Source: a virus
Lineage: Duplodnaviria > Caudoviricetes
DNA: 64,000 nt
IMG/VR virus record: IMGVR_UViG_3300031867_000003
Coordinates: 1-64,000 of that record
Strand: one strand, 5' to 3'
A program made the translations under genes and the position numbers. The notes under the pieces are model-generated. The model was not told the origin of the DNA. It did no database searches and saw nothing but the letters and a program-made list of their open reading frames with translations. Each line of letters opens with the position of its first letter. Positions within the stretch are counted from its first letter, which is position 1. Of this stretch, positions 200-63,600 are shown in pieces.

Positions 200-3055
200 A
201 TGAAAAAATATTGGCCAATGGCGATTATTAAACGTGGTAAAGAGTGGGATATTCAGCACACATACGATGCTGCAATGTCTTATGAAAAGGCAATGGATGT
301 AATAAAGATATGGAGAGATGAGTATAAATTCGAGATTATTTCTTTCTGGATTGATGTTACTGATAACGGAAAGAAAATTGAGAGAAGTACTCCGTATGTA
401 TATCTTAATCTTGTAAAAGAACTCTGGGAAGATTTCGGTGATGTTCCGATGAATCCTGAAACGGAATGCATCGAAGATTTCTGGGGAAGATTTGTTCCAG
501 GTACTCACAGAGAAGAGATCTGGCACTGGTTTGAAGATACATTTCATGTTAGCGTTGCGGAAGATTTGATGTAATAAAGTCGCCTTTGATAGAGAGGAGA
601 TGATTAAATGAAATATGTTGTAACTGCATACGTTGATAAGGACAAGAAGTACGAAGTAAACGTAACTGTAAAGCGTAATGCCAAAAAGAGAACAGTATTT
701 ATTAAATGCATGAATGCGGTTGGTCAGATGTTAGTAAATGATAAAATCCTCACCACAGGCAAGTACGGATTTGAAACACCGTGTTTAAATAATGGTTGTC
801 TTGGTGCGGCATGGTTTAACGATCCATTCATTAATGTGACTATTCAAGAAGAAACTGGTGCTTGGATAGCACTCTAATAAAACTCGCCTTTGATGAGAGG
901 AGAAAGATAAATGAAGAACGAACGTATGATTGTCGAAGGATACGATGGAAATTATTACTTTTTTGATTATCCTGAAGATGATGAAAGGGAAGACGGAATT
1001 GGTGCCGTAGATGTAAACGATGAAATTGGTTATCATCAGTGTAAAAGATCTGCTCTTTATGATGATATGGAGGGATATGTAGATGAATTGCAGAATGAAG
1101 AAAAACTTCCTGATGGTAATTACATCGTAACTTATTTTTTCTTAAATGATGACTTGGATCTTGAACAGAGAGTTGATTTTGGTATTAGTAAAAGTGAGAT
1201 TGTTCAGAATGTTATCAGTCAGAAATATATTGAGGGAGCAGATTATTTCCAGATGAAACAGTTGGTTAGATACTAAAAAGGAGATGACATAATGAAAACA
1301 TACATTATTGATTATGTTGTTGGTAACACATATAAAGTAAAGAAGATAAAAGCGGAAACGGTTGAACAGGCAACTAAGAAAGCAAGAGTTAAATCAATTG
1401 TTGATATTAACATTGAAGAATACATTGTGAAAGACAAATATCAGCTGAGAGACTTTTAATAAAAGACACGTTTAATGAGAGGAGAAAGCTATGATAAAGG
1501 TAAGAGCAAGAGTTGATGACGATTATATGACAATGCACTTCCCGTCACTAAAGGACGCAATCAATTATGTGTCTTTTGAGTATGAGTACTATTCAAAATT
1601 ATATGTAGAAACAGAAAGATACAATGCCGCAGATACAAAAGATTGTGTCGTTTGTTTTGATGATGAAGACCATCATTGTGAATTATATAGTAATAAATTG
1701 AGAATGGCATATATTGATTCGTGGGATATGTATATGGAATGGCAGATAGAAGAGAAATGAAAATCAAGTTTGACGGGAGGAATGCAAATGGAATTCAGAA
1801 GCGCGATTGTAGATGAAACCGGCATGGTGATGTTTTGGGTTGATACTCTCCAGGGTGACGATCAGGTAGAAGCAATTCTCGCCGCTCATCCGGAGTGGTC
1901 ATGTGTAGCAATTGAACAGAGCGATTATTAAAGAAGGGAGCGTGATACAATGAGCAACACAATAGAAAGCTGTGCAACAACCGATGGAAAGATGATGTGC
2001 GAACTGGTAACCGGTAAACATTACGGAGCAACGGTATATGTAGTTCATGTGTACGAAACATCGGACTACGTAGACTACAAAGAAACTCACCGGTCTTATC
2101 CGATAGGCAACAAGGTAAAGGCGAAGACATTATATAAGAAGTACACTAATTTGTACTTGAGAAATCGCAAGTAATTATTAAGGAGGAAAAACCATGACAG
2201 AAATGTTGATTAAAAACGTATCTACCGCAGCAACTAGAGAACTTGCACAACTTAAAAAAGAAATTGCTCGTCTCGAAGAAGAACTTGACATAAAAGATCG
2301 CGCAATTAAAGAGTACCAAAAATCTGTTATTAAAAATGCTATGAAAGTAACCGAAAAGAAACCGTTCGCTCCGGCAACCAAAGTAACACCTGATCAGTTC
2401 GCCGAAATTTATGAAGCGATAGTTTATAATGCGCGTGACTTTGATAAGGAAACTCACGGATACGATTTGGACGACATAACAAATGACAGAATAACTATTA
2501 CCTGGAGAGGAATGGAAACGTCCATTGAACTTGGTGCTGAGGTAAATGAATATTTTATGGAAGCACTGAAGGAAACATACAAACAGCAGATCGGTTATTG
2601 AGGAGAACGGCTATGAGAAAACCAACATGGAGAATCACAAGAGAAAGCTTTGACTACTTAGTAGACAATATCCAATATATTGTTACTCACGCCGAGGATT
2701 ACGATCAGATGTATAACGAACTTGAGGATTTGATTGTCGGCGAAGGATTTATTGAAGAGATTACTGAGGAGGAAGACAAATGAAATTATTAAAAACACTG
2801 AGAGTTAATCAGAAAGCAAGAGTAAAACTTGATTACTTCATGGGAACGGACACTTACAAAGACATCTATCTGCCGATAGTCATCAAGGCAGAATATCCCA
2901 CCTGGTATTTATGCGAGGTTCTCCCTCACATGAATCCTCGCGGTTGGAAAACTTCCGCACCGTATCCCGTAACGATCAGTAAATGGAATCTTGCTCACGG
3001 TTTTGTTAGCGTAATTCCATACAACGAAAATAATCCCGTGCTTTATATGGCATAA
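200..3055 (+). other. Array of small hypothetical phage genes (200-574, 608-877, 911-1276, 1292-1459, 1491-1760, 1788-1931, 1950-2174, 2194-2601, 2598-2783, 2780-3055)
   Basis: Tightly packed ORFs, most preceded by a GGAG/AGGAG RBS; no family recognised. Confidence 0.8.
574..1773. repeat. Gene-junction palindromic sites, left cluster (574-589, 878-893, 1460-1475, 1758-1773)
   Basis: ATAAA-GTCGCC-TTTGA, TAAAA-CTCGCC-TTTGA, TAAAA-GACACG-TTTAA, TGAAA-ATCAAG-TTTGA, each between a stop codon and the next RBS. Confidence 0.8.
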
Positions 3056-5547: not shown

Positions 5548-6498
5548 ATGACTGGAAGACAGGAAGATGAAATAAAACTAAAAAATAAAATACAAAAAAT
5601 GTTAATTGACAAACCTATTATATTAAAAAAATATTATGCGTATATGGGGGAGAATAAAACAGAAAAAACAAAAAATTTGTATATATTAGGTCTTATAAGA
5701 TATAATAATTTTTTAATTATAAATAATCATACCGTAGAAGATTTTGATTATTTGCAAAATCAGAAAAAAACAGATATTAACGAATACATAGAAGAGTTAA
5801 AATATAGAAATGTTAATGGGAAAATAATAAATAACAGCAGAAGTAATATTAGGACTAATTTATATGCGGTAAAATCTTTTTTTGAGTTTTTGGAGGATGA
5901 GGAATACATTACGAAGAATCCATTTTATAACTTTAAGTTCCCAAAATTAAATGAAATTATTGAAGTTCGTCCGATAGAAAAGTCTGATATTAGAGAAATC
6001 AAAGCAAATATCCGAGCTTTTAGTAAAAATCCAGAAAGAGACGAGGCCATATTTGTTATAGGTATTAAAACTGGTTTGCGAGCATCTGCCATAACAGAAA
6101 TAAATATCTCGGATATTAATTGGGAAGATCATACGATAAAGGTAACAGAAAAAGGTAACGTAACTAGATTAGTTTATTTTGGTGAAAATACTGAAACTGC
6201 TTTGATTAAATGGCTTGATGTTAGAAAAGAAACTCCAAATTGCGACGCGTTGTTTATTAATAATAGGGGGCAAAGAATTAATTATAGTATTATCAATAGA
6301 ATGTTAAAAAAATACGGACTGGGTAATGTTCCACATAATTTGAGAAAAACATATGGCACAAATCTTTATGATGAGTCTGGGGATATTTATTTAACCGCAG
6401 AAGGGCTAGGACATAAAAATATTCAAAACACGAAAAGATACGCTCGAGTATCAGAAAAGAAGAAATTACAAGCAGCAAGATTAGTAGATAAAATATAA
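5548..6498 (+). CDS. Tyrosine recombinase/integrase (XerC-like; YopP/SroD position)
   Basis: TGLRASA (R), VTEKGN (K), PHNLRKT (HxxR), LGHKNIQNTKRY (H, Y); catalytic set intact. Confidence 0.9.
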   Translation: MTGRQEDEIKLKNKIQKMLIDKPIILKKYYAYMGENKTEKTKNLYILGLIRYNNFLIINNHTVEDFDYLQNQKKTDINEYIEELKYRNVNGKIINNSRSNIRTNLYAVKSFFEFLEDEEYITKNPFYNFKFPKLNEIIEVRPIEKSDIREIKANIRAFSKNPERDEAIFVIGIKTGLRASAITEINISDINWEDHTIKVTEKGNVTRLVYFGENTETALIKWLDVRKETPNCDALFINNRGQRINYSIINRMLKKYGLGNVPHNLRKTYGTNLYDESGDIYLTAEGLGHKNIQNTKRYARVSEKKKLQAARLVDKI

Positions 6499-6515
6499 TA
6501 ATAGTTAAAATGCGC

Positions 6516-6544
6516 TTGCAACTAATACAATTATGTTGTATTAT
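6516..6544 (+). promoter_or_regulatory. SigA-like promoter
   Basis: TTGCAA-17bp-TATTAT, the -10 overlapping a TATTATTAAA box. Confidence 0.55.
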
Positions 6545-6568
6545 TAAATAAGAGAAAGGAGACTTATC

Positions 6569-7810
6569 ATGATAAACGGCGAAGCAAGCAGAGCTGAACT
6601 TAATAATTATCTCAATGAGAAGCTGACAGAAATTACCAACAGAAAAGAAAGGATGGAACTGTATAAACAGATATATTCCAAATTCAACATTCCGATTGAA
6701 GTTGCTACCGACTACTTTACTTTCAAAAGAGATATAGCTGAGGCGTCAACATTTGAGGTATTTGCATTTTTATATTTTATTAAAAGAAGTCGTCTCAGTT
6801 TATATTTCACTGACAATGAAATAGAAGTACTGAGCAGCGAAAAAGCAGAAGAAAAAACAGTTACATTTCCGCTTGTATTTAAAGACATTGTTCAAATAAG
6901 CGAGGATCAATGGATTGGTCGCACATCATTTCAAGAACTTATGGCGATGAAGGACGCTCGATTAATTAACTATGACGAGAACGAGCAGCGAACATTCCGC
7001 CACATCAAATCCGGCAATACGGAAATCCTAAGGGTATATATAAATAAGAAGTCTGTCCAGGAAATAAAGGAGTCATTCAAAAATGGACGCTATATCCCGG
7101 ACGATATCACACTCAATATTCCACAGGGATCGGAATTCAGTTTTAGCAATAACACCCTCAAGATATATAGCCTGGTAAACGACAAATTCAACATTATTGA
7201 CGGCTATCATCGCTGGCTCGGCATGGCAGAAATATATAATTTTGACAAGGATTTCGATTACCCGATGGAGATTAGATTTGTTAACTACTCTACGGAAAAG
7301 GCAAATCAGTTTATCTTCCAGAAAGATCAAAAAACTCAGATGAAAAGGACTGATTCCGCATCTTACAATCAGTACAATGTCGCCAACCGAGTCGTTAAAA
7401 GATTAAACGAAGATCCGATGAGTAACCTTCAGGGAATGATTGCTCGTAATGACGGATTAATTAAAGAAGCCGATCTTGCAGCTGTGATTGATTCTTTCTA
7501 TGTTAAAGGCAAAGAATTTGGAAACGAAACTTCGGCAGTTGTAACTATCAAAAATGATATCCAAAAGAAATTCAATTCTTTATCTGAATCAAACCCAAAA
7601 TATCTCAATAAAAAATACACTGTCAAAGATTTAATAATTATGATGTACGTTTTTACATTGCCAGACGTTAGCGTAAATGACTATAATGAACTGATTAATT
7701 ATTTATATAATAGAAATATAGAAAATAGATGTTTTACATTCAATAGAAATTACGTAAGAAGGAAAGCTATAAACGAATTAAATAATGCACTATCAGAATG
7801 GAGGCGTTAA
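6569..7810 (+). CDS. DGQHR/DndB-like (ParB-superfamily) protein, YopQ/SroE-like
   Basis: IIDGYHRW motif, ITLN strand, QFIFQ; lies between two recombinase-fold genes. Confidence 0.75.
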   Translation: MINGEASRAELNNYLNEKLTEITNRKERMELYKQIYSKFNIPIEVATDYFTFKRDIAEASTFEVFAFLYFIKRSRLSLYFTDNEIEVLSSEKAEEKTVTFPLVFKDIVQISEDQWIGRTSFQELMAMKDARLINYDENEQRTFRHIKSGNTEILRVYINKKSVQEIKESFKNGRYIPDDITLNIPQGSEFSFSNNTLKIYSLVNDKFNIIDGYHRWLGMAEIYNFDKDFDYPMEIRFVNYSTEKANQFIFQKDQKTQMKRTDSASYNQYNVANRVVKRLNEDPMSNLQGMIARNDGLIKEADLAAVIDSFYVKGKEFGNETSAVVTIKNDIQKKFNSLSESNPKYLNKKYTVKDLIIMMYVFTLPDVSVNDYNELINYLYNRNIENRCFTFNRNYVRRKAINELNNALSEWRR

Positions 7811-7812
7811 TT

Positions 7813-8706
7813 ATGTATAATGCAGATCGCAAGCTCCAGTTTTTGAAAGAACGCAAGAGTGAGGTGGAATTATCTCCCAACACGGAAATTTGGTTTGAGT
7901 CAATGGAGTACTTTGAGAAAGAATATGACCGAGATATTTGCGAATGGACATCTACGGAAATTATTCGATATATGAAATACATGAGTACACCACGGATACA
8001 GACGTTGATTATTTTAAAAGGATCAATGAGTATATACACCGATTGGTGCATAACAAATCGCTTGGTTAACGATAATCAAAATCATTTTGCTGAGCTTACC
8101 ACGGAAACACTCTGCCAATGTATTGATTTTACAAAGCTAAGAACATTGATTCTTACCAGAGAAGAACTGATGGAAAATATCCGGACATTGAATAACTACT
8201 CGGATCGGTTTATTTTTCTCGGGCTATTTGAGGGGATTAATGCGCAGAATTTAGTCAATGTCAGCGTCTCCGATCTTGACGGAAATGAATTACGCCTCCA
8301 TGATGGTAGAACCATTACGATTAGTAAGGAGCTTTGCCACACTATCTTGATGGCAGCCGAGGAAACAACGTGGGTTAGTACTAAGATCCGCCAAAGAGAA
8401 TATGATTATATTCCTTCTGATAAGATAATCCGGTCTATTGATGTTAAGAATCCGCAGACAAATATGATGTTACTTATTGGCGGAAGGTTTAGGAGCGCAC
8501 TTAAGTATATGGGATTACCGAGCGAAATCTCGCGGAAAGATATTATGGAAGGAGGACGGTTAGATTATATCAAACAAATTATGCAAAAGAAGGATCTACC
8601 ACTAGATAATGTGTTGCGTAGTGATATTCGCAATGCGATAGAAACAAGATATGGTAAAATCCAGAACTTAACAATCTACGAAAATATATATGGGAAATTT
8701 ATTTAA
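7813..8706 (+). CDS. MrpR/YopR(SroF)-like repressor with degenerate tyrosine-recombinase fold
   Basis: MYNADRKLQFL N-terminus, FEKEYDRDICEW, FLGLFEGI; HxxR and Y catalytic motifs absent; synteny with the SPbeta yopPQR triad. Confidence 0.65.
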   Translation: MYNADRKLQFLKERKSEVELSPNTEIWFESMEYFEKEYDRDICEWTSTEIIRYMKYMSTPRIQTLIILKGSMSIYTDWCITNRLVNDNQNHFAELTTETLCQCIDFTKLRTLILTREELMENIRTLNNYSDRFIFLGLFEGINAQNLVNVSVSDLDGNELRLHDGRTITISKELCHTILMAAEETTWVSTKIRQREYDYIPSDKIIRSIDVKNPQTNMMLLIGGRFRSALKYMGLPSEISRKDIMEGGRLDYIKQIMQKKDLPLDNVLRSDIRNAIETRYGKIQNLTIYENIYGKFI

Positions 8707-12086: not shown

Positions 12087-12168
12087 AGCGGTGTGTTGTA
12101 AAAGGTAGCATACGCCCGTAGACATGGGAAACGTGGGCGAGGTATTGGTTCGAATCCAATCATCGCAA
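12087..12168 (+). ncRNA. tRNA-like RNA with 17-nt anticodon loop
   Basis: GCGGTG/CATCGC acceptor, D arm, CGCCC/GGGCG stem, T arm ATTGG-TTCGAAT-CCAAT. Confidence 0.6.
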
Positions 12169-14049: not shown

Positions 14050-14141
14050 GGGAACGTAGTTTAATAAGGTGCCAAAAATAAATCCTTAAGGCAAAACACT
14101 TTTGCGCAAAAGAGATGCAAGTTCAAACCTTACCGGTCCCA
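14050..14141 (+). ncRNA. tRNA-like RNA with D-loop hairpin insertion and minimal anticodon loop
   Basis: GGGAACG/CGGTCCC, GTTT..AAAC with inserted TGCC..GGCA hairpin, CTTTT-GCGC-AAAAG, GCAAG-TTCAAAC-CTTAC. Confidence 0.6.
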
Positions 14142-37426: not shown

Positions 37427-37520
37427 TCATAACACAATATATAGTGCTTGGATAACAACATAAACCACAATATATAGAGGAGAATATCCAATGAAAAGAA
37501 TTTTTGATTGGATAAATAAA

Positions 37521-42227: not shown

Positions 42228-42289
42228 GAAAACACTAGAAAATAAATTATTAAAAAATGCAATGAAAATTGAATTTTATTGGAAGATAT

Positions 42290-42478
42290 TAGGCTTCCTA
42301 CCGGGCGAGGTATTATCCCACGCCCAATAATCACGGATATTCCGCGAGGGATATTTCGTGCGGGTTATTTTGGCCCCGAAAGCTGAGGGAGTATATTTTG
42401 ATGATGGGTTATACACCGTTACGATGTATTCCGGAGAAATATATTACCACTCGGCAAAACCGATGTAAATTTTATACA
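42290..42478 (+). ncRNA. Candidate tracrRNA with anti-repeat (5' end approximate)
   Basis: ACCGATGTAAATTTT (42459-42473) pairs over 15 bp, with G-U, to repeat AGGATTTACATTGGT, plus 4 bp after a bulge; upstream hairpins. Confidence 0.65.
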
Positions 42479-42498
42479 GTGCCGAATGTGAATTTGAG

Positions 42499-43059
42499 GT
42501 TGTAGATGTGAGGATTTACATTGGTACAAAACCTTTGCCAATCGTTCTACGTCCGAATACTTGTTTTATAGATGTGAGGATTTACATTGGTACAAAATCT
42601 TAGCCATCAAAATCCCTCATTTGTAACTGTTTTGTAGATGTAAGGATTTACATTGGTACAAAACCTTATCTGGAAGATATGTCAGTGAAGGAAGTTTTGG
42701 AAATGTAAGGATTTACATAGGTACAAAACTTCAAGCCAGCTTGATTTAAGTTTACGCTTGTTTTGTAGATGTTAGAATTTATATTGGTACAAAACCCACC
42801 GGATCCGAACGATACTGATTGACATGTTTTGTAGGTGTAGGGATTTACATTGGTACAAAACTAGAGCCGACAAGGGGAATGCATAAGTTTCGTTTTGCAG
42901 GTGCAAGGATTTACATAGGTACAAAACCATAAAGACAAAGCCCGAAACGCCATCAACGTTTTGTAGGTGCAAGGATTTACATAGATACAAAAACTCGGCA
43001 GTTTCGAAGTTCTATAGACTTCTACTTTGGAAGTGTAAAGATTTATGTGGAGATATAAT
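42499..43059 (+). CRISPR. CRISPR array: 8 repeats plus a degenerate terminal repeat, 8 spacers of 29-30 nt
   Basis: Consensus GTTTTGTAGATGTAAGGATTTACATTGGTACAAAAC (36 nt); starts at 42499 (34 nt), 42563, 42629, 42694, 42760, 42826, 42892, 42958, degenerate 43024. Confidence 0.95.
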
Positions 43060-43061
43060 AA

Positions 43062-44408
43062 ATGATTACGAGAAAAATTCAGTTATATCCTATTGGAGAT
43101 GAAAAAGAAGTTGATAGAGTATACACATATTTAAGAGATAGCATTAAATCGCAGAATAAAGCGATGAATCAATATATGTCTAATCTGTATGTGGAAGAAT
43201 TATTAAATGCGTCCAAAGAAGATCGAAAAGAATTAAATGCATTATATACTAGAATTCCGACCAGTAAAAAAGGAAGCGCTTATAGTCTGGATTTGGAATT
43301 CCAAAAAGGACAGATGCTTGGTTATATAACCAGAGCAATAGATTCAGATTTTAAAAAATCACTAAAAGACGGGTTGATGTATGGGAAAGTATCTCTCCCG
43401 GTTTACTCAAATAGCAATCCGTTATTAGTTCATGTGAATTATTGCAATTTGCGTAGTAAGGTTCAAAAACAAACAGGCACTAACACTGGTATTTACCACA
43501 ACTACGAATCTCATCAGGAGTTTTTATCTCATTTGTATAAAACAGATATAGAAATATATCTTCAGTTCTGCAATAATATTTTGTTTAAATTAAATCTCGG
43601 TGATAGCCTCAGAAAATCTCGCGAAATCCGTTCAGTAATACAGAAAATATTTGAGGAAGAATATATTATCCACGGTTCGCAGATCCAGTTAAAGAAGAGG
43701 AAAACTGGCAAGGGCGAAGATATATTCTTACTGCTATCAATCGAAACTCCGGTTGTTAAGCATGAACTTGATGAAAATATTGTTGTCGGCGTAGATCTCG
43801 GCGTGGCAAATCCGGCAGTATGTGCAGTAAACATTAACGGCAATTATAAATTCCTGGGCGACGGAGAAACATTCCTTCATTATAAACAAAAATCCAAAGC
43901 CGAAAGACGCAGACTTCAGAGAGCTCTAAAGTATACAAATGGCGGTCACGGAAGAACCAAAAAACTGAAAGCACTCGATAGATTGAAAGAACGTGAGAGC
44001 AACTTTACTACAACGTATTCTCATAAGCTCTCAAAAGATGTTGTAGATTTTGCCATTGAACAGCATGCCAAATACATCAACCTCGAGGATTTAACCGGAA
44101 TAGATGACAAAGATGGTAAAAAACTTCTCGATTGTTGGAAATACTACGAACTTCAGCAGTTTATTATCTACAAAGCTACTCATCATGGCATAGTAGTCCG
44201 CTTTATTAATCCAAAATATACATCTCAGACTTGTTCCAAGTGCGGAAATCATGCCGAGGGGCAGCGTGACGGTCATAGTTTTACATGTAAAGATTGTGGC
44301 GAAGAGCTTGATGCCGATCTTAATGCAGCCAGAAACATTGCTATGTCAACAAATTTTGTTGAAAGAGGCAAGAAGAAAAAGAAAAAGAATAAAACCGATA
44401 ATAAATAA
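43062..44408 (+). CDS. cas12f: Cas12f-like (TnpB-superfamily) RNA-guided nuclease
   Basis: RuvC GVDLG, INLEDL, DADLNAARNIA all intact; GGHGR..K, TSQTCSKCG..CKDCG; 448 aa; abuts the array. Confidence 0.85.
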   Translation: MITRKIQLYPIGDEKEVDRVYTYLRDSIKSQNKAMNQYMSNLYVEELLNASKEDRKELNALYTRIPTSKKGSAYSLDLEFQKGQMLGYITRAIDSDFKKSLKDGLMYGKVSLPVYSNSNPLLVHVNYCNLRSKVQKQTGTNTGIYHNYESHQEFLSHLYKTDIEIYLQFCNNILFKLNLGDSLRKSREIRSVIQKIFEEEYIIHGSQIQLKKRKTGKGEDIFLLLSIETPVVKHELDENIVVGVDLGVANPAVCAVNINGNYKFLGDGETFLHYKQKSKAERRRLQRALKYTNGGHGRTKKLKALDRLKERESNFTTTYSHKLSKDVVDFAIEQHAKYINLEDLTGIDDKDGKKLLDCWKYYELQQFIIYKATHHGIVVRFINPKYTSQTCSKCGNHAEGQRDGHSFTCKDCGEELDADLNAARNIAMSTNFVERGKKKKKKNKTDNK

Positions 44409-44409
44409 T

Positions 44410-44546
44410 ATTTTGCCTGAGACGGCATTGTTACTACCGAAGAAATGAATTCGGTAGCTAATAACTGACCAATTAAGCGGTGGGTTGGGGTTAGCTCCGA
44501 AAGGTGATTATGTCCAAGGATGAAGTAACTACCGCATCTACTAAGA
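44410..44546 (+). ncRNA. Second scaffold-like RNA downstream of cas12f
   Basis: Hairpins TGCC/GGCA, CTACCGAA/TTCGGTAG, GCGGTGG/CTACCGC; CCGAAAGGTGA; GCATCTAC complementary to the repeat 5' half. Confidence 0.45.
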
Positions 44547-44570
44547 GATAAAATATAATAGTTGGAAGGA

Positions 44571-45668
44571 GTGATTACTATAGATATTGATGTTAGTGAA
44601 TTACGGGTGGGATAGGTTTATAGTTATAAAGAATTGTGTGAACTGATAGGTGCTGAGTATAAAAAAGGCGCTGGCAAAACTTATCAACTAGAAAAATTTG
44701 GAGAAACAGGATTTCAGAGATTTTTTAATTTTGAAAAAGTAGGACGAGGAAAGTATGAGGTTCTTGAAATCTATGATGAACCGCTCCCTATAGAAGATGA
44801 AAGACATAAAGGTAATAACAAAGTATACAAACATTACATAGAGCTGGTATTAATGAATTATCTGGCGAAGAAAGGTACTCACGTTGAAACATTTACTATG
44901 AGAGATCTGTGGCAGCTCCTCGGAATGATAAATGAAAAATATGGGAAAGTAGATAACGATAAACTACTTTCTATGAATAGCTGCATTACGTCATATGAAA
45001 TTAATAATTTCTATTTTAGGAGTGATAAAAAGTTACGTCAAATATTATTATCCGCACTTAAAAATTTGCGCAATAGAAGATTAATAGACTGGCAATTACA
45101 AACAGTTGTCTGTAAAGAGAAGAACGGCAAGGAAGAATGGTTTGTAGCTAATGATAGCGAAATAGAATTAATTCTTGATGCAGAATACGAGATACTTCAT
45201 CGAATGGGATTTACAAAAATGTTTCAGGTGATTTCTTCTTTTAAAACAAAAGAATTTTATACAGCCGTCGAGAATCTTTTATATAAGAAGAAAAAATGGA
45301 AAAATTATTATAAGCGATATAAAATTATATTCAACGCCAACAACATAAAAGAATCCGTTCCCGACGTCGAAGCAGAGCTAAAAAGAGCATTATTAAATGC
45401 AAAAATCATATTATACTTAAATAACGAAGCAGAAACGGCATATAATTCAAAACTAAAAGAATACAATGGCAATCTGGCGCATGAAGTTTACGTTCAAGGA
45501 AATATTATTGAAGCACTACATGCTTTCAAATATCCCGATGATTATGTAGTTGCTCAGAGGATGTTGTCAGATGAACTTATTAATACGCATGATTACTCGC
45601 CCGAAATTATTAATGAGTTACTTAATACAGAAGCGTCAGATAAAGAATTGGATATGATGTTTCCTTGA
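44571..45668 (+). CDS. Hypothetical basic protein with in-frame TAG at 44613 (possible DNA-binding/initiator protein)
   Basis: AAGGAG RBS at about 44566-44571; frame continues ELRVG*VYSYKELCELIG into the track ORF. Confidence 0.65.
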
Positions 45669-45680
45669 TGGAGAATTTTT

Positions 45681-45745
45681 TTACACAATTTATAATTTCA
45701 TACTATATAATTCCTTAGTATAGTATACCGTTTTAAATTGTGTAA
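45681..45745. repeat. AT-rich nested inverted repeat
   Basis: TTACACAATTTA/TAAATTGTGTAA enclosing TACTATA/TATAGTA. Confidence 0.7.
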
Positions 45746-45892
45746 TCGGAATTATATTACTGTCTACCTCAACAAAGCATTGTTTCGGTAGAAAAAATCT
45801 TAATTTATTAACTAGCCCGCATCGGCAAATACTTTTGTCGGTGCGGAAAATATAAACTAATAACCATATATATTCCCAAAGGAGGACACCTT

Positions 45893-51362: not shown

Positions 51363-52724
51363 TTGTGGAGCGCCGATTGAACCGTACAAGATTAGGTGCG
51401 ATTATTGCGGAACTTACTACCTAGATTTGACCGCTTTCGATATGAGTGAGAATAAACCATACTATGTAAAGTTTCGCATACCAGGCGGAACTATTACCAC
51501 AAGAGCGATTCCCGAGGTGAAGAATGTGGATGTGTACGAGGATTCGTTTAATGCTCTGGATTGTATGGGGAATACGGTTGCAACATTTGTTAATTCTCGA
51601 AGCTGCGATATTGGAGTAATATTCCACTCGGTGGTTAGTCCGGAAGATAATACGCTATACAAAATTGAAATAAATAATTAATTATTAAATACATATTGAC
51701 AATGAATACACTATGTGCTACCATAAGACAGTAGTTAATTATTAAATATATGAGGGACATATATATGAAAATAAAATACAGAAAAAATGATGTAGTCCAG
51801 TTTACCGAAGACCACAAGTGGATGGCTTCGCTAGGGATTATATCTGACATTCGAGAACAAGATGGCGATATTTCCTACATGATTGGAGTACCAATTCCGC
51901 AGCAGGGTATTGCATATATTTGGTCTAGCGAACCTGATATTGAGTTTGAGTATGTCGGCAGAGCAATACTTGGAGAAGCGGAGGATTAATTATGCTTATA
52001 TGCAATAATACGGATCAAATGTTATATGTTTCCGGTCACCAAATAAAACCTCGAGAGTTCGATGAGGTCATTGAAAGTTGTTTTGATATGATTAGTATTC
52101 ATTGTGATTTAGGCTCCTCACAAATTATATGTGAGTACGGTCAGCGAGAAATCAAAAACTTCGGAAATATTATTGCTGAAGAATCAGATGGTCTAGACCC
52201 TGATAATAAGAAAATTATTATAGTTAATAGCAAATAAAACAAAATTTTGATTGGATATATAATATGATTGATAAAAATAATTCTGTTCCCAATACGCGAG
52301 AGCTGCTTCATATTCATAATGAGCAGAAAGAAGAATGTCGAAAAGAACATGAGAAGAAGCGCCTAAGAAATTATATTCTTAGCGATACAATGTATGTTGA
52401 TTCAATAAAACCGGAGTGCCTTCGCCAGGAAATAGTTGAAGAGATTGGTAGTGGCAAGGAAGTCATATTTAGTATATATCATGGCGGCAGAAAATTTTTA
52501 GAATATCCAATTCAGCTAATTGATAAGGAGGCATGATTATGTTTAACGAAAAAGACGCAATGCCAGAAATGGACGTTGAAGAATATAAAGAAGCGTTGCT
52601 ACGGTCAATTAATGTGGAATTGGGATTGGAATACGGGGAGAACGATAATTATCACGTTGGACTTAGGAACGGATTAAGAATTTGCAGGGCTTTTATAGAT
52701 GGGAAAACTCCGGATTATGAATAA
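51340..52724 (+). other. Small hypothetical genes (stops at 51681, 51989, 52237, 52536, 52724)
   Basis: ORF track, RBS motifs. Confidence 0.7.
51678..51746 (+). promoter_or_regulatory. SigA promoter flanked by two TTAATTATTAAA boxes
   Basis: Boxes 51678-51689 and 51735-51746; TTGACA 51696-51701, 17 bp, TG-extended TACCAT. Confidence 0.8.
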
Positions 52725-56426: not shown

Positions 56427-57866
56427 GTGTAGTGGTTAAAGGTATAAAAATGCCACGGTCGTGTTCTGATTGCCAATTGAACCTTGAACAGATGGCATGT
56501 TCTGTCACGGGGACAAGATGGTGGAGCGACACAATGGTTCTAATGGATTTCGATTGTGACAATGAAAGGCTTTACGATTGTCAAATAGATGAACTTCCGG
56601 AGCATCATGGTAGATTAATTGATGCCGACAAAATGAAACAGTGGTTTTTCCGACCATATTCAAATGAGGAAAGTTATTCCAATATTGATATTGCAAGGAT
56701 TATAGATAGTCAAGCTACTATTGTTGAAGCAGAATGAAAGAGGTTATGGAAATGATTAAATTAAATATAGAAATGCCAGAAAGTTGGTTAGATTGTCCAT
56801 TTATGGAAGAAGATGCAGACGATAATACGCCATGGTGTTATTTTGAACCGTATGTTGACGGACGATGTACTGGATTGTTCCAGGGCAAATGCCCGATAAT
56901 TCGGGATGAAAATACAGAATGAAAGGGTTATTCTATGGGGGATAATATATGAGACTGATTGATGCTAACGAATTATTAGAACACGCGTGGAGAGATAAAC
57001 TCGACAGTAGAGAATTAATAGCAAACATGATTGAAAGCGCTCCAACGGTTTATAATCGAGAAAAATGTGGCGAGGCTAATATCATAATGGGGGATAGAAG
57101 TTACAGCGAGGGATGTGTATCTGACTTTGTTTCTATTCTTCTAGCGAATGGATATGAAGTAAATATTAAACGAAATTGTAATAAATTTAATATCGAGTAT
57201 TATAAACAACATGAGTCTATGTTTGAATTTTAATAAAAGGATTTCTTAATGAACTATAAAGAATTTGCAAAAACACTTTTTGATTCTGAAGGCCAAATGT
57301 TTCCAAATGGCACAGACGCGCAGACTTGTTTGAATATTTTGGCGGATCATTTCTTGGGAAAAGATTTGGTACTAAATTATCCTGGTCATATAACTCAATG
57401 GAATTCTGAAGTTACTCATGAAATTTTGAGAAAATATCCATCTGGAAAAATTAGAAGAATACACAAATAATAAATGGGGGGTTATTTAATGGATATAAAA
57501 AGAGTTAATCATATTGAATTACATTTTAATCATAAGGATAATTTGGAAACATTATTATTTATGAATAATGATTGTGAAATTGTTATTAGAAACCTAAAAC
57601 GAGACCATATTATAGTTGGCGGAGAAGCAGTAAACAATTACACTTATGATTTTATGAGCTTGTGGTTTAAGACCGATGACGATGATTATTATAATCATAA
57701 TTATGAATCGTTAAAAAAATTAAAAACCATTAAACTAGATGATCTTTGCTCGATAGTTATTAAATATACCGATGGTACGGAGATGATGGTGCATCCAACT
57801 GAAGATATTACATATATAGCCATGAACAATGAAAATGAATATTTACATGTGATGTATCAGAAATGA
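56423..57866 (+). other. Small hypothetical genes (stops at 56737, 56922, 57233, 57470, 57866)
   Basis: ORF track; RLIDAD/RLIDAN phage modules. Confidence 0.7.
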
Positions 57867-57904
57867 AACAGTACTTTGATAAATATTAAATATGGTAATA
57901 GAAT

Positions 57905-58468
57905 ATGGTAATAGATTTAGAAAACTGTAATAACAAGTATGGAATTATTTACACGGATCCGCCATGGCAACAATCAAAAGGCGGTAAAAAATCTGTAAGA
58001 CCAAATTCTAGTGGGGGGGAGTTATCGTACCCAACAATGAGTATAGAGGACATCTCTTCACTGCATGAAAATGTTTTTAATAAATTAACAGAGAAAAAGC
58101 ATGATGTCTTTATGTGGACAATTGACAAATATTTAATAGATACAGAACAGTTTATGAAAAAACTTGGGTACACAAGACATGCTAGGATTATATGGGATAA
58201 GATTACTGGTCAAGCTACAGCATTTACTGTCAGATTTACACACGAATATTTGTTATGGTTTTATAAAAAAGGGAATATCTTAATGCCAGCAGATAGTACT
58301 CGCGGAAAATATTCAGATGTAATAAGAGAACAAGTAAAACGGCATTCGCAAAAACCGCAATGTGCATATGAAATGCTAGAAGATATGTTTCCAGATACTA
58401 AGAAACTAGAATTATTTGCGAGAAACAAACGACCTGGCTGGGACTGCTGGGGCAATGAAGTAGCATAA
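57905..58468 (+). CDS. MT-A70-family N6-adenine methyltransferase
   Basis: IIYTDPPW, YPTM, FMWT, HSQKP, KLELFAR..GWDCWGNE. Confidence 0.92.
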   Translation: MVIDLENCNNKYGIIYTDPPWQQSKGGKKSVRPNSSGGELSYPTMSIEDISSLHENVFNKLTEKKHDVFMWTIDKYLIDTEQFMKKLGYTRHARIIWDKITGQATAFTVRFTHEYLLWFYKKGNILMPADSTRGKYSDVIREQVKRHSQKPQCAYEMLEDMFPDTKKLELFARNKRPGWDCWGNEVA

Positions 58469-58480
58469 AACGATTCTTTT

Positions 58481-60040
58481 ATGGAGACGGCGATAATGAC
58501 AGAAGAAAAGGCTCTTGAAGCATTTAAAAATATATATAACGAAATAGATAAAGATAACCATCTGTTTGTTGGAACGATTAATCCAGAGATGATTATGATT
58601 GCTATTGAAGCATTGAAATATAAGATTAGCACAAGAATTATTACAGATAGTATAACGATAGAATGAGTTTTTTATATGGATGATAATAAAGAAAAAATAG
58701 TTGACGCTTTAAGCCAAGTGGCGGAGGAATATTTAGTTCCAGTCGAAGAAATTGCTGAGGCATTAAAAATAGTGAATAATAGGATGAAAGAATTTTTAGA
58801 TTCCGGTAAAAAACTTTCGGAAAAAGACTGGGAAAGAATGTTCAATAATTTATAAAAAGATTATTTAATTGGAGTAATAATATGGATTTTAAACTTGGAA
58901 ACATACCAATTCGTAATGCCAGAAATATAGAGTGGGAATCAAATGATGATGGCACTGGACAACTTTGGTTCAATGCCATGTTTGTAGACAAAGATGGCGA
59001 AGAACAAATTGTGAGATTCCATATATTTCGATTAAAGTTTGATGATCCGCTGATATCTATGGAATCTGTCAACAACAAGTTATATGAGGTTGAAGTACTA
59101 TGATTGGTAAGTGTTCAAATGTATGCAACAATAAAACATCCGAGGGTTATTGCAAAACGACAGGATGCATCAATCCTCGCTATCAGCAGTATTTATTTAC
59201 CGGGGTCGAAGACGGATGGATTAAGGTTGATAAAAAAACATGGGACGAATATCAGATGATGAAAAATCCTGATTATGGAGTTGGAAAATATAGTTGATAA
59301 AAAAATATTTGATGAGGTGTTAAATGCACTTGTATGAAATCGAGGCAGATTATAGACCGAAGAATCCAAACAAGCCTAAATATTATGTCTGGGCCGATAC
59401 AGTTAAAGAGGCAAAATTGGTTTTTAGCAACATAATCAGTTGGCTTACAATTTATAATGTCACTACGGTGGACGAAGAAGCTGCTTGCAAAATATGTAAT
59501 GAGCCAAATAAACATATAATCATATAAAAACAGTGGAGATAAATATAATGTCACGACATAAACGAAAAGGTCGAGCCATCGATCATTGCTGGAAATTTTG
59601 TAAATATAAAGGTGATATATCATTTTACGCCAAGTGTAGCTGTGGATTTCTATATCCTTGTTATAAAAATATTCCCCCTAATCCGATACATATTGTTCCG
59701 GCTCCTGAGAAGTTATTTAATTATTGCCCGCATTGCGGAGCGAGAAAAACTAGATATTATGAAGAAACAATTTATATAGATCGATATTTATTTGAGAATT
59801 GACGTTATTAGGAGGTATAATATGGATAACACACAAGAAGCATTAAACAGAGCCAAGACACTTCTTAAAGCTACCGGGAAATTACTTAAAAAACAAGAGG
59901 ATTCATATTATGTATTAAATATTTTAAAAGAAACTGTTTATTATGATGGGGCCGAATGTGACGGTTTATGTTTGTTGGATGATATTAGATATTGGCTTGA
60001 TGAATTTACAACTGATAATATAGATGAGGAAGATTTATGA
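58481..60040 (+). other. Small hypothetical genes (stops at 58666, about 58848, 59103, 59297, 59527, 59802, 60040)
   Basis: ORF track, RBS motifs. Confidence 0.7.
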
Positions 60041-60489
60041 CGTACAAAGAAGAAAAACGTGATTTATTCACTGTCGATGATAGCTATTACTTGGCACATT
60101 GCATCAGCGCGGATTTTAAACTTGGCGCGGGAATCGCAGTTGAATTTGATAAACGATTCAATTGTCGCAAGAGATTATTCGAAATGTATCCGTCATCAAG
60201 AGTTCCTTACTGGGATAAGCTCCAAGATAGATTCAAGGGATTATGTACTATTACGGATCCCGTCTATAATCTAATAACCAAGCGCAACTATTGGAATAAG
60301 CCGACATTAACAACTATGGAAAACGCGCTACTTTGGATGAAAGAAGATTGCGAAATTCGCAAGATTGATAAACTGGCAATGCCGAAGATTGGCTGCGGAT
60401 TAGATAAATTACACTGGGAAGATGTGTCTGCATTAATTAAAAAGGTATTCGATGACACTGATATAGAAATTTTGGTTTGCGTCCAGTGA
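60037..60489 (+). CDS. Macrodomain ADP-ribose hydrolase (TARG1/DarG-like)
   Basis: DLF, LAHCISADFKLGAGIA..F, NLITK, AMPKIGCGLDKL.W. Confidence 0.9.
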   Translation: MTYKEEKRDLFTVDDSYYLAHCISADFKLGAGIAVEFDKRFNCRKRLFEMYPSSRVPYWDKLQDRFKGLCTITDPVYNLITKRNYWNKPTLTTMENALLWMKEDCEIRKIDKLAMPKIGCGLDKLHWEDVSALIKKVFDDTDIEILVCVQ

Positions 60490-60498
60490 TAGGAGTTT

Positions 60499-60673
60499 AT
60501 GATGGCTAAAGGAACAAGAGAATGCCCGGTTTGCTCCGAAGATTGTTCAGTACTATGATGATACGCTTTTTGATCTGAACGGTATTCATACCACAATTTA
60601 CCAGGATCTTGCCAAAGAGGTATTCGGCACTTTTGATGGAGTTTGCTATTGCACTGAAAAGGTTGAGGAGTAA
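60499..60673 (+). pseudogene. Chimeric remnant: short Zn-finger start joined out of frame to a 3' fragment paralogous to 10897-11478
   Basis: FAPKIVQYYDDTLFDLNGIHTTIYQDLAKEVF vs FDNKVVQYYSDNLADVNRNTSTLYQDIADRVF. Confidence 0.6.
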
Positions 60674-63600
60674 TGCACACTGTTTGGGCGGTTACCTATT
60701 TAGATGAATATGATCACTCGCAAATGCTGATATTTGATAATCCATTAGCAGCATATGCTTGCCGCCGTTACTTCTATAATATTTATAGGGGTAACGTGCA
60801 AGTTGATCAGCACGAAGTTTATGGTAGCTTTATGGCGGCTGGGAATGAGGACGAATAATGTGGAATCCAGAGACTGATGCTTGTGATTACTGCTATGAAT
60901 GTGAATATTTTTTACATGAGTACTGGAATTGTCAAGGCGAATTAGAACCTTGTTTGGAATTCATACCAAAGAAGGATTCTAAATATAAGAAAGTCGAGGT
61001 TGTTGTTACGAAGGAGAAATAAATGTTAAACGATTCATATTGGAAAGAACACAATGATGGCGAACGTGCTTATTTATATTCCATGGATGGTAGAACAATA
61101 GCTTTTATCCAGAGAAAAAATGATATATGGAGTTGTTCCATATACGAGGAGTTTATTAGTGAAGATTTTTATTGGAGGGGGATGGATTCAATTAAAGAAG
61201 TTGAATGGCAAGTAACTCTTTATATTAGTAATAAGTGTAATAAGATAGCTAATCAACTTCATAAAATTCGGGATCATCTTCCGAGTATTCATGATCTGGC
61301 TGAAAAAGCAGGAGTTATAAAATGATCTATTTAGCAATTGGGAATGTTGTTTTTATGTTGGGATATATAGTTGGTAAAATATGTGCTACATACGAATACA
61401 ATAAAACAAGTCTTTGACGGTGGTTAATATGGACAATATAAAATACGTTACAAAAGAAGAAGTTGATAAAAATAAATATGGGTATGCAGTATGCGAATGC
61501 ACGGTTTTTGGTCCAGACTATGGTATACAAGTACCAAGAAAAAAGTATAATGATTTTGTTAAATTTAAATGTCCAAGATGTGGTATGGAACTCGGATTAT
61601 TTGTAAGAGGTACTGATCCGAATTGTGATTATTTTAATGTATGTTAAATATTAGATTTTATGAGGAAGATCACGATGAGTTGGATGGATGAATTGTATTA
61701 TATAATTACCACGCCTGTAATTAAACAATTTGGTGTTAATGCTCTATTATCGAAGGATTTATGGCTTCAAGTGATTGAGTTAATGGCAGATGAGCTGACA
61801 ACAAAAAATTCTATATTGTTTGAAAAGTATAAGATTTGATGATGCAGAGTAACATTTACTTTGATTGGAGAAAAATATGAGCTATAACGAGAACGGTATT
61901 TGTAAATTCGCAATAGAACGAGAAGATAGTCATGGTTCGCAGCAACGTCATCCGCTGCAATTGGTGGCTTGAAGATTATAAACCGGAATTTTTGGAGTAT
62001 TTTGAGGAGATATGAGGAACATGGTTAAAGTATTTACAACAAACAGTGATGGCAAAATTGAATTTACCAAAGATGAGTTGGAAAAATTATTAAACGAAGT
62101 GTGGGAAGACGGACGTAGTTCTTGCTACTGGTGGTCATCGCAGACGATTACGAGTGATAAAATAACAACGCCACTTTACGTCAATAAAGGCGCTGAAATT
62201 ACTTGTATAGCAGGCGAATGAAATTAAGGGATAAGGATATGTGTGGGACAAAAGATAAACCGTGCTGTACTTGCTTTTATGGTGATGGCGGATGCCTTGC
62301 TTCTATGAGAGAGGATTTTTATATGTCTGCTACGGAAGAACAGGTACGGGAACGATTAGAAAATGGTTCGTATTCGGAATACCAGGATGTTATGAAGACG
62401 TATTTGAAAGCATTTGAAATAGCAGCTAAACAAACAATACCACCATTAGAAGATATGAGTCGGATGAACCAAATTTTAAGAGAGCGATTATATTGCTGTG
62501 TAGATAATTAATAAATGAAATTGAGGTTTCATAGGAGAGATTAGTAATGGCTGAATATATTAACAGTGATGTTAAAGTAGTCGGTATTGGCGATAATATA
62601 GAAATTGACATTCCAGAACCAATCGCATCAATAAACTTTGACGCACTTCATGCTGGTACATATGTGGTGGATGTCAAACAAGATGGGTCTTATTCGGCTG
62701 TTTTTGTTGGAACAATGTATGAAAACTAAGTTTTACTGGAGAAAAATGATGGAAAATAATATTAGAACAGTCAAACAACTATATGACGAGTGCGTTAAAA
62801 ATAATATAGAGAATTATGAAATTAGGTGTTTATTTAAATCCTGGGATAATGAAGGATATATCGGCGAGTTGGTGACGGCTCCATATCCTTATACACATAA
62901 CGATCAAGATAAATGCATTAATTTGTATTTTAATCAGACATATAAGATGTTGTAATAAAATTAAGTTTTGTTGGGGAGTAATATGGATATATATGAACTA
63001 ATAGATTACTACATTGATAAATATCTAGAAGAAAAGGAACATCAAACAGATGGATATACTCTTGCTGGGATGTTACAGGGATTATTATGGATTTGTCGCT
63101 TTGGTGGCGTAACAGATGAGAATCTTGGTGATGATAGATTAATAAAAATATCTGGCAAATGAAATAAACGATTGGAGGCACTATGACAAATTTTGAAAAA
63201 TATGTGAGCAGCTTAACACAGGATCGATTTATTAATTCGATGATATTGAATTGTGACGGCTGTCCTGTATATCCATGCTGTGAAGATGGAACTGAAGACA
63301 ATGGAATTGATTGCAAAGAAAGACTTCGTGATTGGTGTGAAGCTGAGAATTGAGGTACAGTCCAGTTATGAGAGAAACTAGAAGAATATGATTATTAAAC
63401 AACGAAAGGAGAGAGTTCACGATGAATAATCAAACAACCACTACCTTCGTGAACGAATATGATAAGTATGATTAATTTAGGAAATATTGTAATAACTGAA
63501 TTTACGAATGCGGAACTTTATAGAAACTTAGATACAGATAGCGACACGCTGTATTTTGAGGGTATAGCCGAAGTCGATGATTCTGACGAAAAACAAAAGA

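Follow-up and report, generated by a model that had tools for sequence, protein, structure and literature searches.

What marks the points at which a phage exchanges its accessory genes, and does the marker belong to a gene-capture system? The question is raised by a short repeated element in the first 64 kb of the 202,175-bp virus record IMGVR_UViG_3300031867_000003. All genes of this stretch, hereafter the window, lie on the plus strand (the gene calls are our own and rough). Sites of the form T(A/G)AAA-N6-TTT(G/T)A had been noticed in it, and the original prediction took them as punctuation of an integron-like array of promoterless one-gene cassettes at 56920-62970, mobilized by a tyrosine recombinase encoded at 5548-6498. 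We found that the dyad site is real, is common to this phage and SPbeta, and marks points at which accessory genes are swapped, and that nothing shows an integron-like working. Literature searches returned no earlier description of the element.

Counts, spacing, and symmetry of the dyad site

A scan of the window for the strict pattern T[AG]AAA-N6-TTT[GT]A gave 12 hits on the plus strand and two on the minus strand, compared with 3.3 expected from dinucleotide shuffles. The enrichment, which had been predicted, is specific to a spacing of six, as other spacings give zero to five copies instead of 12. The whole genome holds 21 forward and eight reverse copies, and the reversed pattern, used as control, gives five and five. 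The motif also holds within 56920-62970, but the 15 copies claimed there reduce to about 11-12. Four of them are strict (57864, 58466, 61402, and 62720). When position 4 of the right arm is set free, 58853 and 62516 join, which brings the perfect copies to six versus 0.6 in block shuffles. About six junctional copies, including 56920, 57234, 58659, 61645, and 62956, have one mismatch. The isolated copies at 37492, 42263, and 52235 were confirmed by the scan, and so were three of the four copies placed at 574-1773 (878, 1460, and 1758), whereas the fourth, near 575, has a spacing of five. As had been noted for the replication genes, no copy lies between 13359 and 37492.

A site profile was built from 51 junctional sites of this phage and five close relatives. 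It has A at position -1 (78%), T-R-A-A-A, six free bases, T-T-T-N-A, T at +17 (86%), and GGAG at +19 to +22. The refined element is an 18-bp dyad, ATnAAA-N6-TTTnAT, with mirror-symmetric flanks. In most copies, as originally described, an in-frame stop codon forms the left arm, and the Shine-Dalgarno sequence of the following gene adjoins the right arm; the copies 61402, 62516, and 62720 are exceptions with respect to the stop codon (Table 1).

No pairing covariation was found between the mirrored variable positions of the half-sites, and the RNA folds negligibly, with a mean of -1.3 kcal/mol versus -0.7 kcal/mol for shuffles and just 22% of the sites reaching -2 kcal/mol or better. Mirror-symmetric flanks, the absence of covariation, and the unfolded RNA make the element read as a putative protein-binding DNA site, not a hairpin. 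An RNA hairpin or an RNA-processing site, the latter named in the original prediction as a competing possibility, is ruled out by the absent covariation and by fold energies near those of shuffles, both here and in SPbeta. A promoter-terminator cassette is ruled out as well, as neither signal exceeds the shuffled expectation.

Mosaic junctions in close relatives and in the SPbeta group

When proteins served as search anchors, five close relatives were obtained (G001 to G005), whose shared blocks are 80-93% identical at the nucleotide level, along with distant relatives at ca. 40% protein identity, all of them metagenomic contigs. The search for more gave little, as an anchor at 65.6 kb returned G002 only and a metagenome scan just four more short contigs. 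The spacing-six peak is present in close relatives (8, 10, and 6 copies compared with zero to three at other spacings) and absent from the distant ones.

Compared with the close relatives, the region of 52-64 kb forms a mosaic, the blocks of which are the size of genes and partly changed in order, and homology begins and ends at gene borders. At site-bearing junctions, the breaks fall at the left edge of the site, on either side of the six-base center, or just past the right arm. Deletions and insertions in register between adjacent sites are seen in the relatives. For example, the contig L031 has the site 56920 joined directly to the Tad8-like gene and lacks the gene at 56949-57233, as if the latter had been removed in register between two neighboring sites. 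When the window, G003, G005, and L031 are compared, three genomes have the core of 56920 after one and the same upstream gene, and the downstream gene is different each time. The core of 57864 sits 5' of the MT-A70 methyltransferase gene in the window and 3' of it in G003. The order of sites is retained between genomes; those at 878-1773 keep both order and near-identical cores in G001 (L019).

Identical six-base centers occur in 37 pairs among 72 sites, compared with 1.1 expected. For 24 of the 37 pairs, flank homology is absent within 450 bases on either side, even when translated sequences are compared. When short exact matches were sought without bias beyond the aligned blocks, the hits were mainly dyad sites, a palindrome associated with promoters, and the generic combination of right arm and Shine-Dalgarno sequence. 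From these comparisons, we read the sites as conserved positions between which genes would have been gained, lost, or replaced. The variable cores, which had been taken as tolerated heterology, appear instead to be conserved position markers. The collinear order of cores was dropped as a sign of a special mechanism, for it reflects orthologous positions, and so was the distinctness of cores within one genome, where chance gives 0.07-0.4 duplicates.

One variable slot is bounded on its left by the site 42263. This phage and G001 have different inserts of 3.4-3.6 kb with the same first base, three bases past the right arm. The insert of the window (3.6 kb) holds a repeat array (42503-42668), a TnpB/Cas12f-like gene (43062-44408), and another gene (44634-45668). 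The suggestion that this site bounds a CRISPR-type module is therefore borne out at the left border; the right border has no dyad site.

Breakpoints in relatives coincide with sites as had been proposed, but of the 51 junctions in 51-66 kb, 36 carry no site, and breaks are nearly as frequent at these. Site-free junctions are broken in 86% of genome comparisons and site-bearing ones in 94-99%, with an odds ratio of 4.5 from comparisons that are not independent of each other. Hence, cassettes are not generally bounded by sites, and the sites are favored crossover points that are not required for shuffling. In line with the original proposal, the sites lie in a highly mosaic array of small accessory genes, and an identical 16-mer joins unrelated genes in different genomes.

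The same element is found in SPbeta (AF020713), which has 43 copies at spacing six versus 8.7 in shuffles (maximum 18), including those at 86074, 115044, 117535, and 132747. The SPbeta copies are mainly intergenic, with the stop codon as left arm, and the Shine-Dalgarno sequence lies 10-25 nt further from the site at a looser distance. Their half-sites mirror each other out to 11 bases (11-6-11), the left one being in coding sequence (73 distinct contexts), and no pairing covariation was found among them. Mirrored half-sites without covariation are the signature expected of a protein-binding dyad. We counted 95 same-center pairs, where 1.07 are expected, among SPbeta, phi3T, Goe13, Goe14, and SPbetaL1; adjacent flank homology is found on neither side in 41, on the left only in 23, on the right only in 18, and on both sides in 13. 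The linker behavior is therefore repeated in an independent, cultured phage group, and the element is a family trait of SPbeta-type phages. The laboratory phi3Ts-SPbeta hybrid Hyb2 was uninformative, as the sequence is identical throughout the 1.4-kb interval of its crossover, which has a site only at its end.

Candidate binding proteins and competing readings

The genes at 5548-8706 follow the order yopP-yopQ-yopR of SPbeta, and in SPbeta-like phages these genes make up a core lysogeny module (PMC10516654, PMC8612738). MrpR/YopR is the recombinase-fold master repressor of SPbeta. This operon has been reported from B. subtilis SPbeta-like arbitrium phages only (PMC8612738); here it stands, in the SPbeta order, in a 202-kb metagenomic phage. 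The proposed enzyme, encoded at 5548-6498, is indeed a tyrosine recombinase that matches XerA, XerC, and XerD and keeps the catalytic motifs TGLR, HNLR, GH, and RY, but it is the YopP homologue of this SPbeta-type lysogeny module. The only tyrosine recombinases of the window are encoded at 5548-8706, 45 kb from the array. YopP is conserved across SPbeta-like phages, and its enzymatic role is not assigned (PMC10516654, PMC8612738). The module is present in this phage, in G001, and in G002 (MrpR 87% identical), while the complete distant relatives G006 and G008 have neither module nor motif.

In SPbeta, MrpR bound only about ten promoter sites, and its published peaks lie at SPBRE only (PMC10516654). 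As derived here from six SPbeta promoters, SPBRE has one copy 5' of the -35 element and another immediately ahead of the Shine-Dalgarno sequence. A perfect palindrome of 12-14 nt in this phage, with 33 forward and 15 reverse copies at no more than one mismatch, has the same layout, one copy being just 5' of a sigma-70-like -35 element and the second ca. 60 nt on, right before the Shine-Dalgarno sequence. Its positions include 3966, 19358/19419, 37521, 41349/41386, and 51678/51735 in the window and 68519/68579 in the genome. Because of this shared layout, the palindrome is probably the operator of the MrpR-like repressor. That the dyad site should be this operator is unlikely, as the positional analogue of SPBRE is a different palindrome and MrpR is confined to SPBRE.

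The dyad site shares features with several known systems. Like the promoter-early stem-loop (PeSL) of T4-type phages (Arbiol 2010, PMC2839356; Comeau 2014, PMC4122927), it is a repeated intergenic element reaching from stop codon to Shine-Dalgarno sequence and concentrated in hyperplastic regions of small accessory genes, and it is where indels and replacements that separate close relatives have their borders. PeSL, however, is longer by several-fold and combines a strong sigma-70 promoter with a stable G+C stem-loop terminator, whereas the dyad site is 16-18 bp with a variable center and has neither promoter or terminator signal nor stable fold. Stoperators of cluster A mycobacteriophages and the SPBRE/MrpR (SroF) operators of SPbeta (PMC3029335, PMC10516654, bioRxiv 10.1101/2025.11.27.690993) are likewise many short copies in intergenic spacers of temperate phages, often touch stop codons or Shine-Dalgarno sequences, and are tied to a phage repressor module, a homologue of which is in the window. 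Copy number and position of the dyad site fit such a distributed operator. Different from it, those operators are asymmetric or fully specified over 13-24 bp and read by a monomer, and a role in mosaicism is not described for them; the dyad site is symmetric with a free 6-bp center.

Among recombination sites, dif and other Xer core sites (11-6-11) have two inverted A/T-rich arms and a 6-bp center as well, and an Xer-like gene is in the same genome. The dyad site has the inverted arms around a crossover-sized region of 6-8 bp that define a core site, with the spacing fixed at six. However, dif is one site per replicon with a fixed center, whereas dyad sites number tens per genome with differing centers. 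Integron attC sites, too, follow promoterless single genes at their 3' end, and the array of these genes is transcribed from a single promoter ahead of it, but attC sites are 57-141 bp long, have paired R and L boxes, and recombine as a folded single strand, while the dyad site is unfolded. IntI adjoins attI and the Pc promoter, whereas the recombinase here is distant from the array and of another family, and each integron cassette ends in a recombination site, which most junctions here do not have. The integron-like working is thus not upheld. The likeness to Tn916-type targets fails on tract order, as those have a T-rich tract, 6 bp, and an A-rich tract, and the dyad site has an A tract, 6 bp, and a T tract.

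We tentatively favor, with somewhat less than even confidence, a putative operator-like binding site for YopP or YopQ that doubles as a short-homology crossover point. The site would be a dyad-symmetric DNA target of a phage protein within long operons, extending from a stop codon to the next ribosome-binding site, and its role would be comparable to that of stoperators or SPBRE. The most likely binder would be a product of the yopP-yopQ-mrpR module, namely YopP or YopQ and not MrpR itself, since MrpR has its own site. Because the site is the sole sequence common to otherwise unrelated neighboring genes, it would also act as the recombination point. Recombination between sites of co-infecting relatives would then exchange, insert, or delete cassettes in register, by short homology instead of catalysis and with the same logic as PeSL. 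Several points weigh against this reading. The variable 6-bp center is unusual for a classical operator and typical of recombinase sites, 16 to 22 bp is short for homologous recombination, and the fixed place of the right arm beside the Shine-Dalgarno sequence in this phage could suit a role in translation. Furthermore, G007 has distant homologues of the module yet a weak motif signal, and the co-occurrence of module and motif involves few genomes.

In a reading that we regard as unlikely, the sites would be core sites of the YopP-like Xer-type tyrosine recombinase, and this enzyme would insert, excise, or exchange promoterless cassettes. In its refined form, same-spacer sites of co-infecting genomes would pair like heterospecific lox sites in cassette exchange. 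The inverted arms around a variable spacer of fixed length, in SPbeta with the dimensions of dif, do resemble a core site as originally claimed. A candidate enzyme with Xer matches and catalytic motifs is conserved in SPbeta-like phages, breakpoints fall at either spacer edge or at the outer edge of the invariant arms, two independent inserts share their start base beside 42263, and a core that is 5' of the MT-A70 gene in one genome is 3' of it in another. On the other hand, the majority of shuffled junctions are site-free, several units have a site on one side only (e.g., the Cas12f module and the gene at 62239-62511 in G001), and exchange between different spacers would require a heterology-tolerant enzyme. 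Brady et al. in 2023 reportedly described YopP (SroD) as an auxiliary repressor. Plain operator-like DNA binding combined with homology-driven exchange accounts for the findings no less well. A bolder version has SPbeta-type phages carrying an ordered dif-like series with identical arms and site-specific spacers, along which YopP would exchange, insert, or delete accessory and anti-defence cassettes in register between co-infecting relatives. Such a series would be the equivalent in nature of recombinase-mediated cassette exchange by heterospecific lox sites, and we give this version a slightly smaller chance still.

It is quite improbable that no protein is involved and that the site is an mRNA stop-restart spacer, composed of a strong stop context, an A/U-rich unstructured stretch, and a Shine-Dalgarno sequence, with exchange by microhomology. 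Such a spacer would account for the left arm being usually a stop codon and the right arm abutting the Shine-Dalgarno sequence, for copies that are all on the coding strand within one long operon, and, by descent from one ancestral spacer, for the fixed length; right arm plus Shine-Dalgarno sequence form direct repeats of 11-16 nt at many junctions. It is weakened by the half-site symmetry of SPbeta, which reaches into coding sequence at positions irrelevant to stop or start, and by distant relatives of the same gene style that have no motif. In addition, the Shine-Dalgarno sequence is further off in SPbeta, and the left arm is retained where it is not a stop codon (62516 and 62720). Hardly any weight is left for a biologically meaningless by-product of A/T-rich composition. 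The genome is 63% A+T and the one-mismatch pattern is enriched only about twofold (19 versus 9.3), but the spacing controls contradict this explanation, as do the strand bias and the identical 16-mers in unrelated contexts, all of which are repeated in the SPbeta group.

The accessory array and its setting

The run of small genes that carries the sites begins 3' of a sigma-70-like promoter at ca. 51.7 kb (Table 1), and the following sigma-70-like promoter of the genome is at ca. 68.5 kb. Between the two, promoter-like sites (55 versus 61.9 expected from shuffles) and terminator-like sites (4 versus 4.6 expected) are not in excess. Hence, the array is probably a single long operon, and the promoter at 51678-51746 is likely its start, with the operon reaching ca. 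68.5 kb of the genome. Few array products are recognizable, namely an MT-A70 methyltransferase, a Tad8-type protein, and a macro/phosphatase-like protein; Pfam Tad8 is a type II Thoeris inhibitor. Judged by these products, the array looks like an accessory and counter-defence island.

Table 1. Positions in the window of the dyad junction sites and of neighboring features
Feature	Position	Strand	Basis
Near copy with spacing 5	575-589	+	Pattern scan
Perfect dyad junction site	878-893	+	Pattern scan
Dyad junction sites, second and third copies	1460-1475, 1758-1773	+	Pattern scan
YopP-like Xer-type tyrosine recombinase, candidate binder or enzyme	5548-6498	+	Aligns with YopP
YopQ-like protein, candidate binder	6569-7810	+	YopQ match, E 7e-24
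MrpR/YopR-like recombinase-fold repressor	7813-8706	+	Matches solved MrpR/YopR structures; box-I arginine absent
Dyad junction site, followed by promoter-associated palindrome	37492-37507	+	Pattern scan, promoter search
Dyad junction site, left border of variable slot with Cas12f/array module	42263-42278	+	Pattern scan, comparison of relatives
Variable insert	42279-45868	+	Absent from G002, other insert in G001
Sigma-70-like promoter, flanked by two copies of 12-nt palindromic element	51678-51746	+	Promoter layout search
Dyad junction site; 21 nt kept in G001, genes differ on both sides	52235-52250	+	Short-match search
Dyad junction site, one right-arm mismatch	56920-56935	+	Comparison of relatives
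One-mismatch dyad junction site; right arm overlaps start codon of Tad8-like gene	57234-57249	+	Scan
Tad8-type Thoeris inhibitor, 73 aa	57249-57470	+	Pfam Tad8 match, E 8e-11, above family cut-off
Dyad junction site 5' of MT-A70 gene	57864-57879	+	Scan
MT-A70 methyltransferase gene	57905-58468	+	Family match
Dyad junction site, perfect 7-bp inverted repeat	58466-58481	+	Core common to four genomes, neighbors differ
One-mismatch dyad junction site	58659-58674	+	Scan
Dyad junction site	58853-58868	+	Scan, same-core pairs
Macro/phosphatase-like protein gene	60037-60489	+	Family match
Dyad junction site at end of 31-codon open reading frame, whose stop is the right arm	61402-61417	+	Scan
Dyad junction site, one left-arm mismatch	61645-61660	+	Scan
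Dyad junction site, left arm after double stop; G001 homology breaks within site	62516-62531	+	Scan, comparison of relatives
Dyad junction site, stop of upstream gene in core; identical 16-mer in three relatives with other neighbors	62720-62735	+	Scan
Dyad junction site, one right-arm mismatch	62956-62971	+	Scan

Within the array, the gene at 62547-62729 takes its final two codons and stop from the junction site (62720-62729), and its G002 homologue has a different end that overlaps the next gene. The start of the MT-A70 gene carries a perfect 13-bp tandem duplication (57889-57915), which creates a short out-of-frame ATG open reading frame just 5' of the real start. The segment 60490-60672 has no long open reading frame, yet G001 and G002 have coding sequence homologous to it; as the short frame at 60502 stops after 18 codons, it is probably a disrupted gene. 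At the opposite ends of the record, two diverged paralogous genes are preceded by the same stretch of more than 50 nt (135-190 and genome 201633-201690), the last part of which is the promoter palindrome with a Shine-Dalgarno sequence. Outside the array, weak extra tRNA-like matches at 12087-12168 (Rfam, 35.8 bits) and 14050-14141 (33.1 bits) lie near three clear tRNA genes (Met, Gly, and Gln).

The exchange of accessory and counter-defence genes among phages is usually ascribed to random illegitimate recombination filtered by selection, and few systems are known to have defined sequence elements at the joints. In this 202-kb metagenomic phage, the joints are marked by a compact dyad, and the same element, apparently undescribed, is present in SPbeta. 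As SPbeta is one of the best genetic models, binding, silencing, and recombination are directly testable, with the dyad site as a candidate target for YopP and YopQ, conserved proteins of the lysogeny module. Genes for a methyltransferase and a macro-domain protein are among those punctuated by the sites, together with a Tad8-like anti-Thoeris gene and, at one site, a Cas12f-type module. Given this gene content, the element may shape the movement of counter-defence genes.

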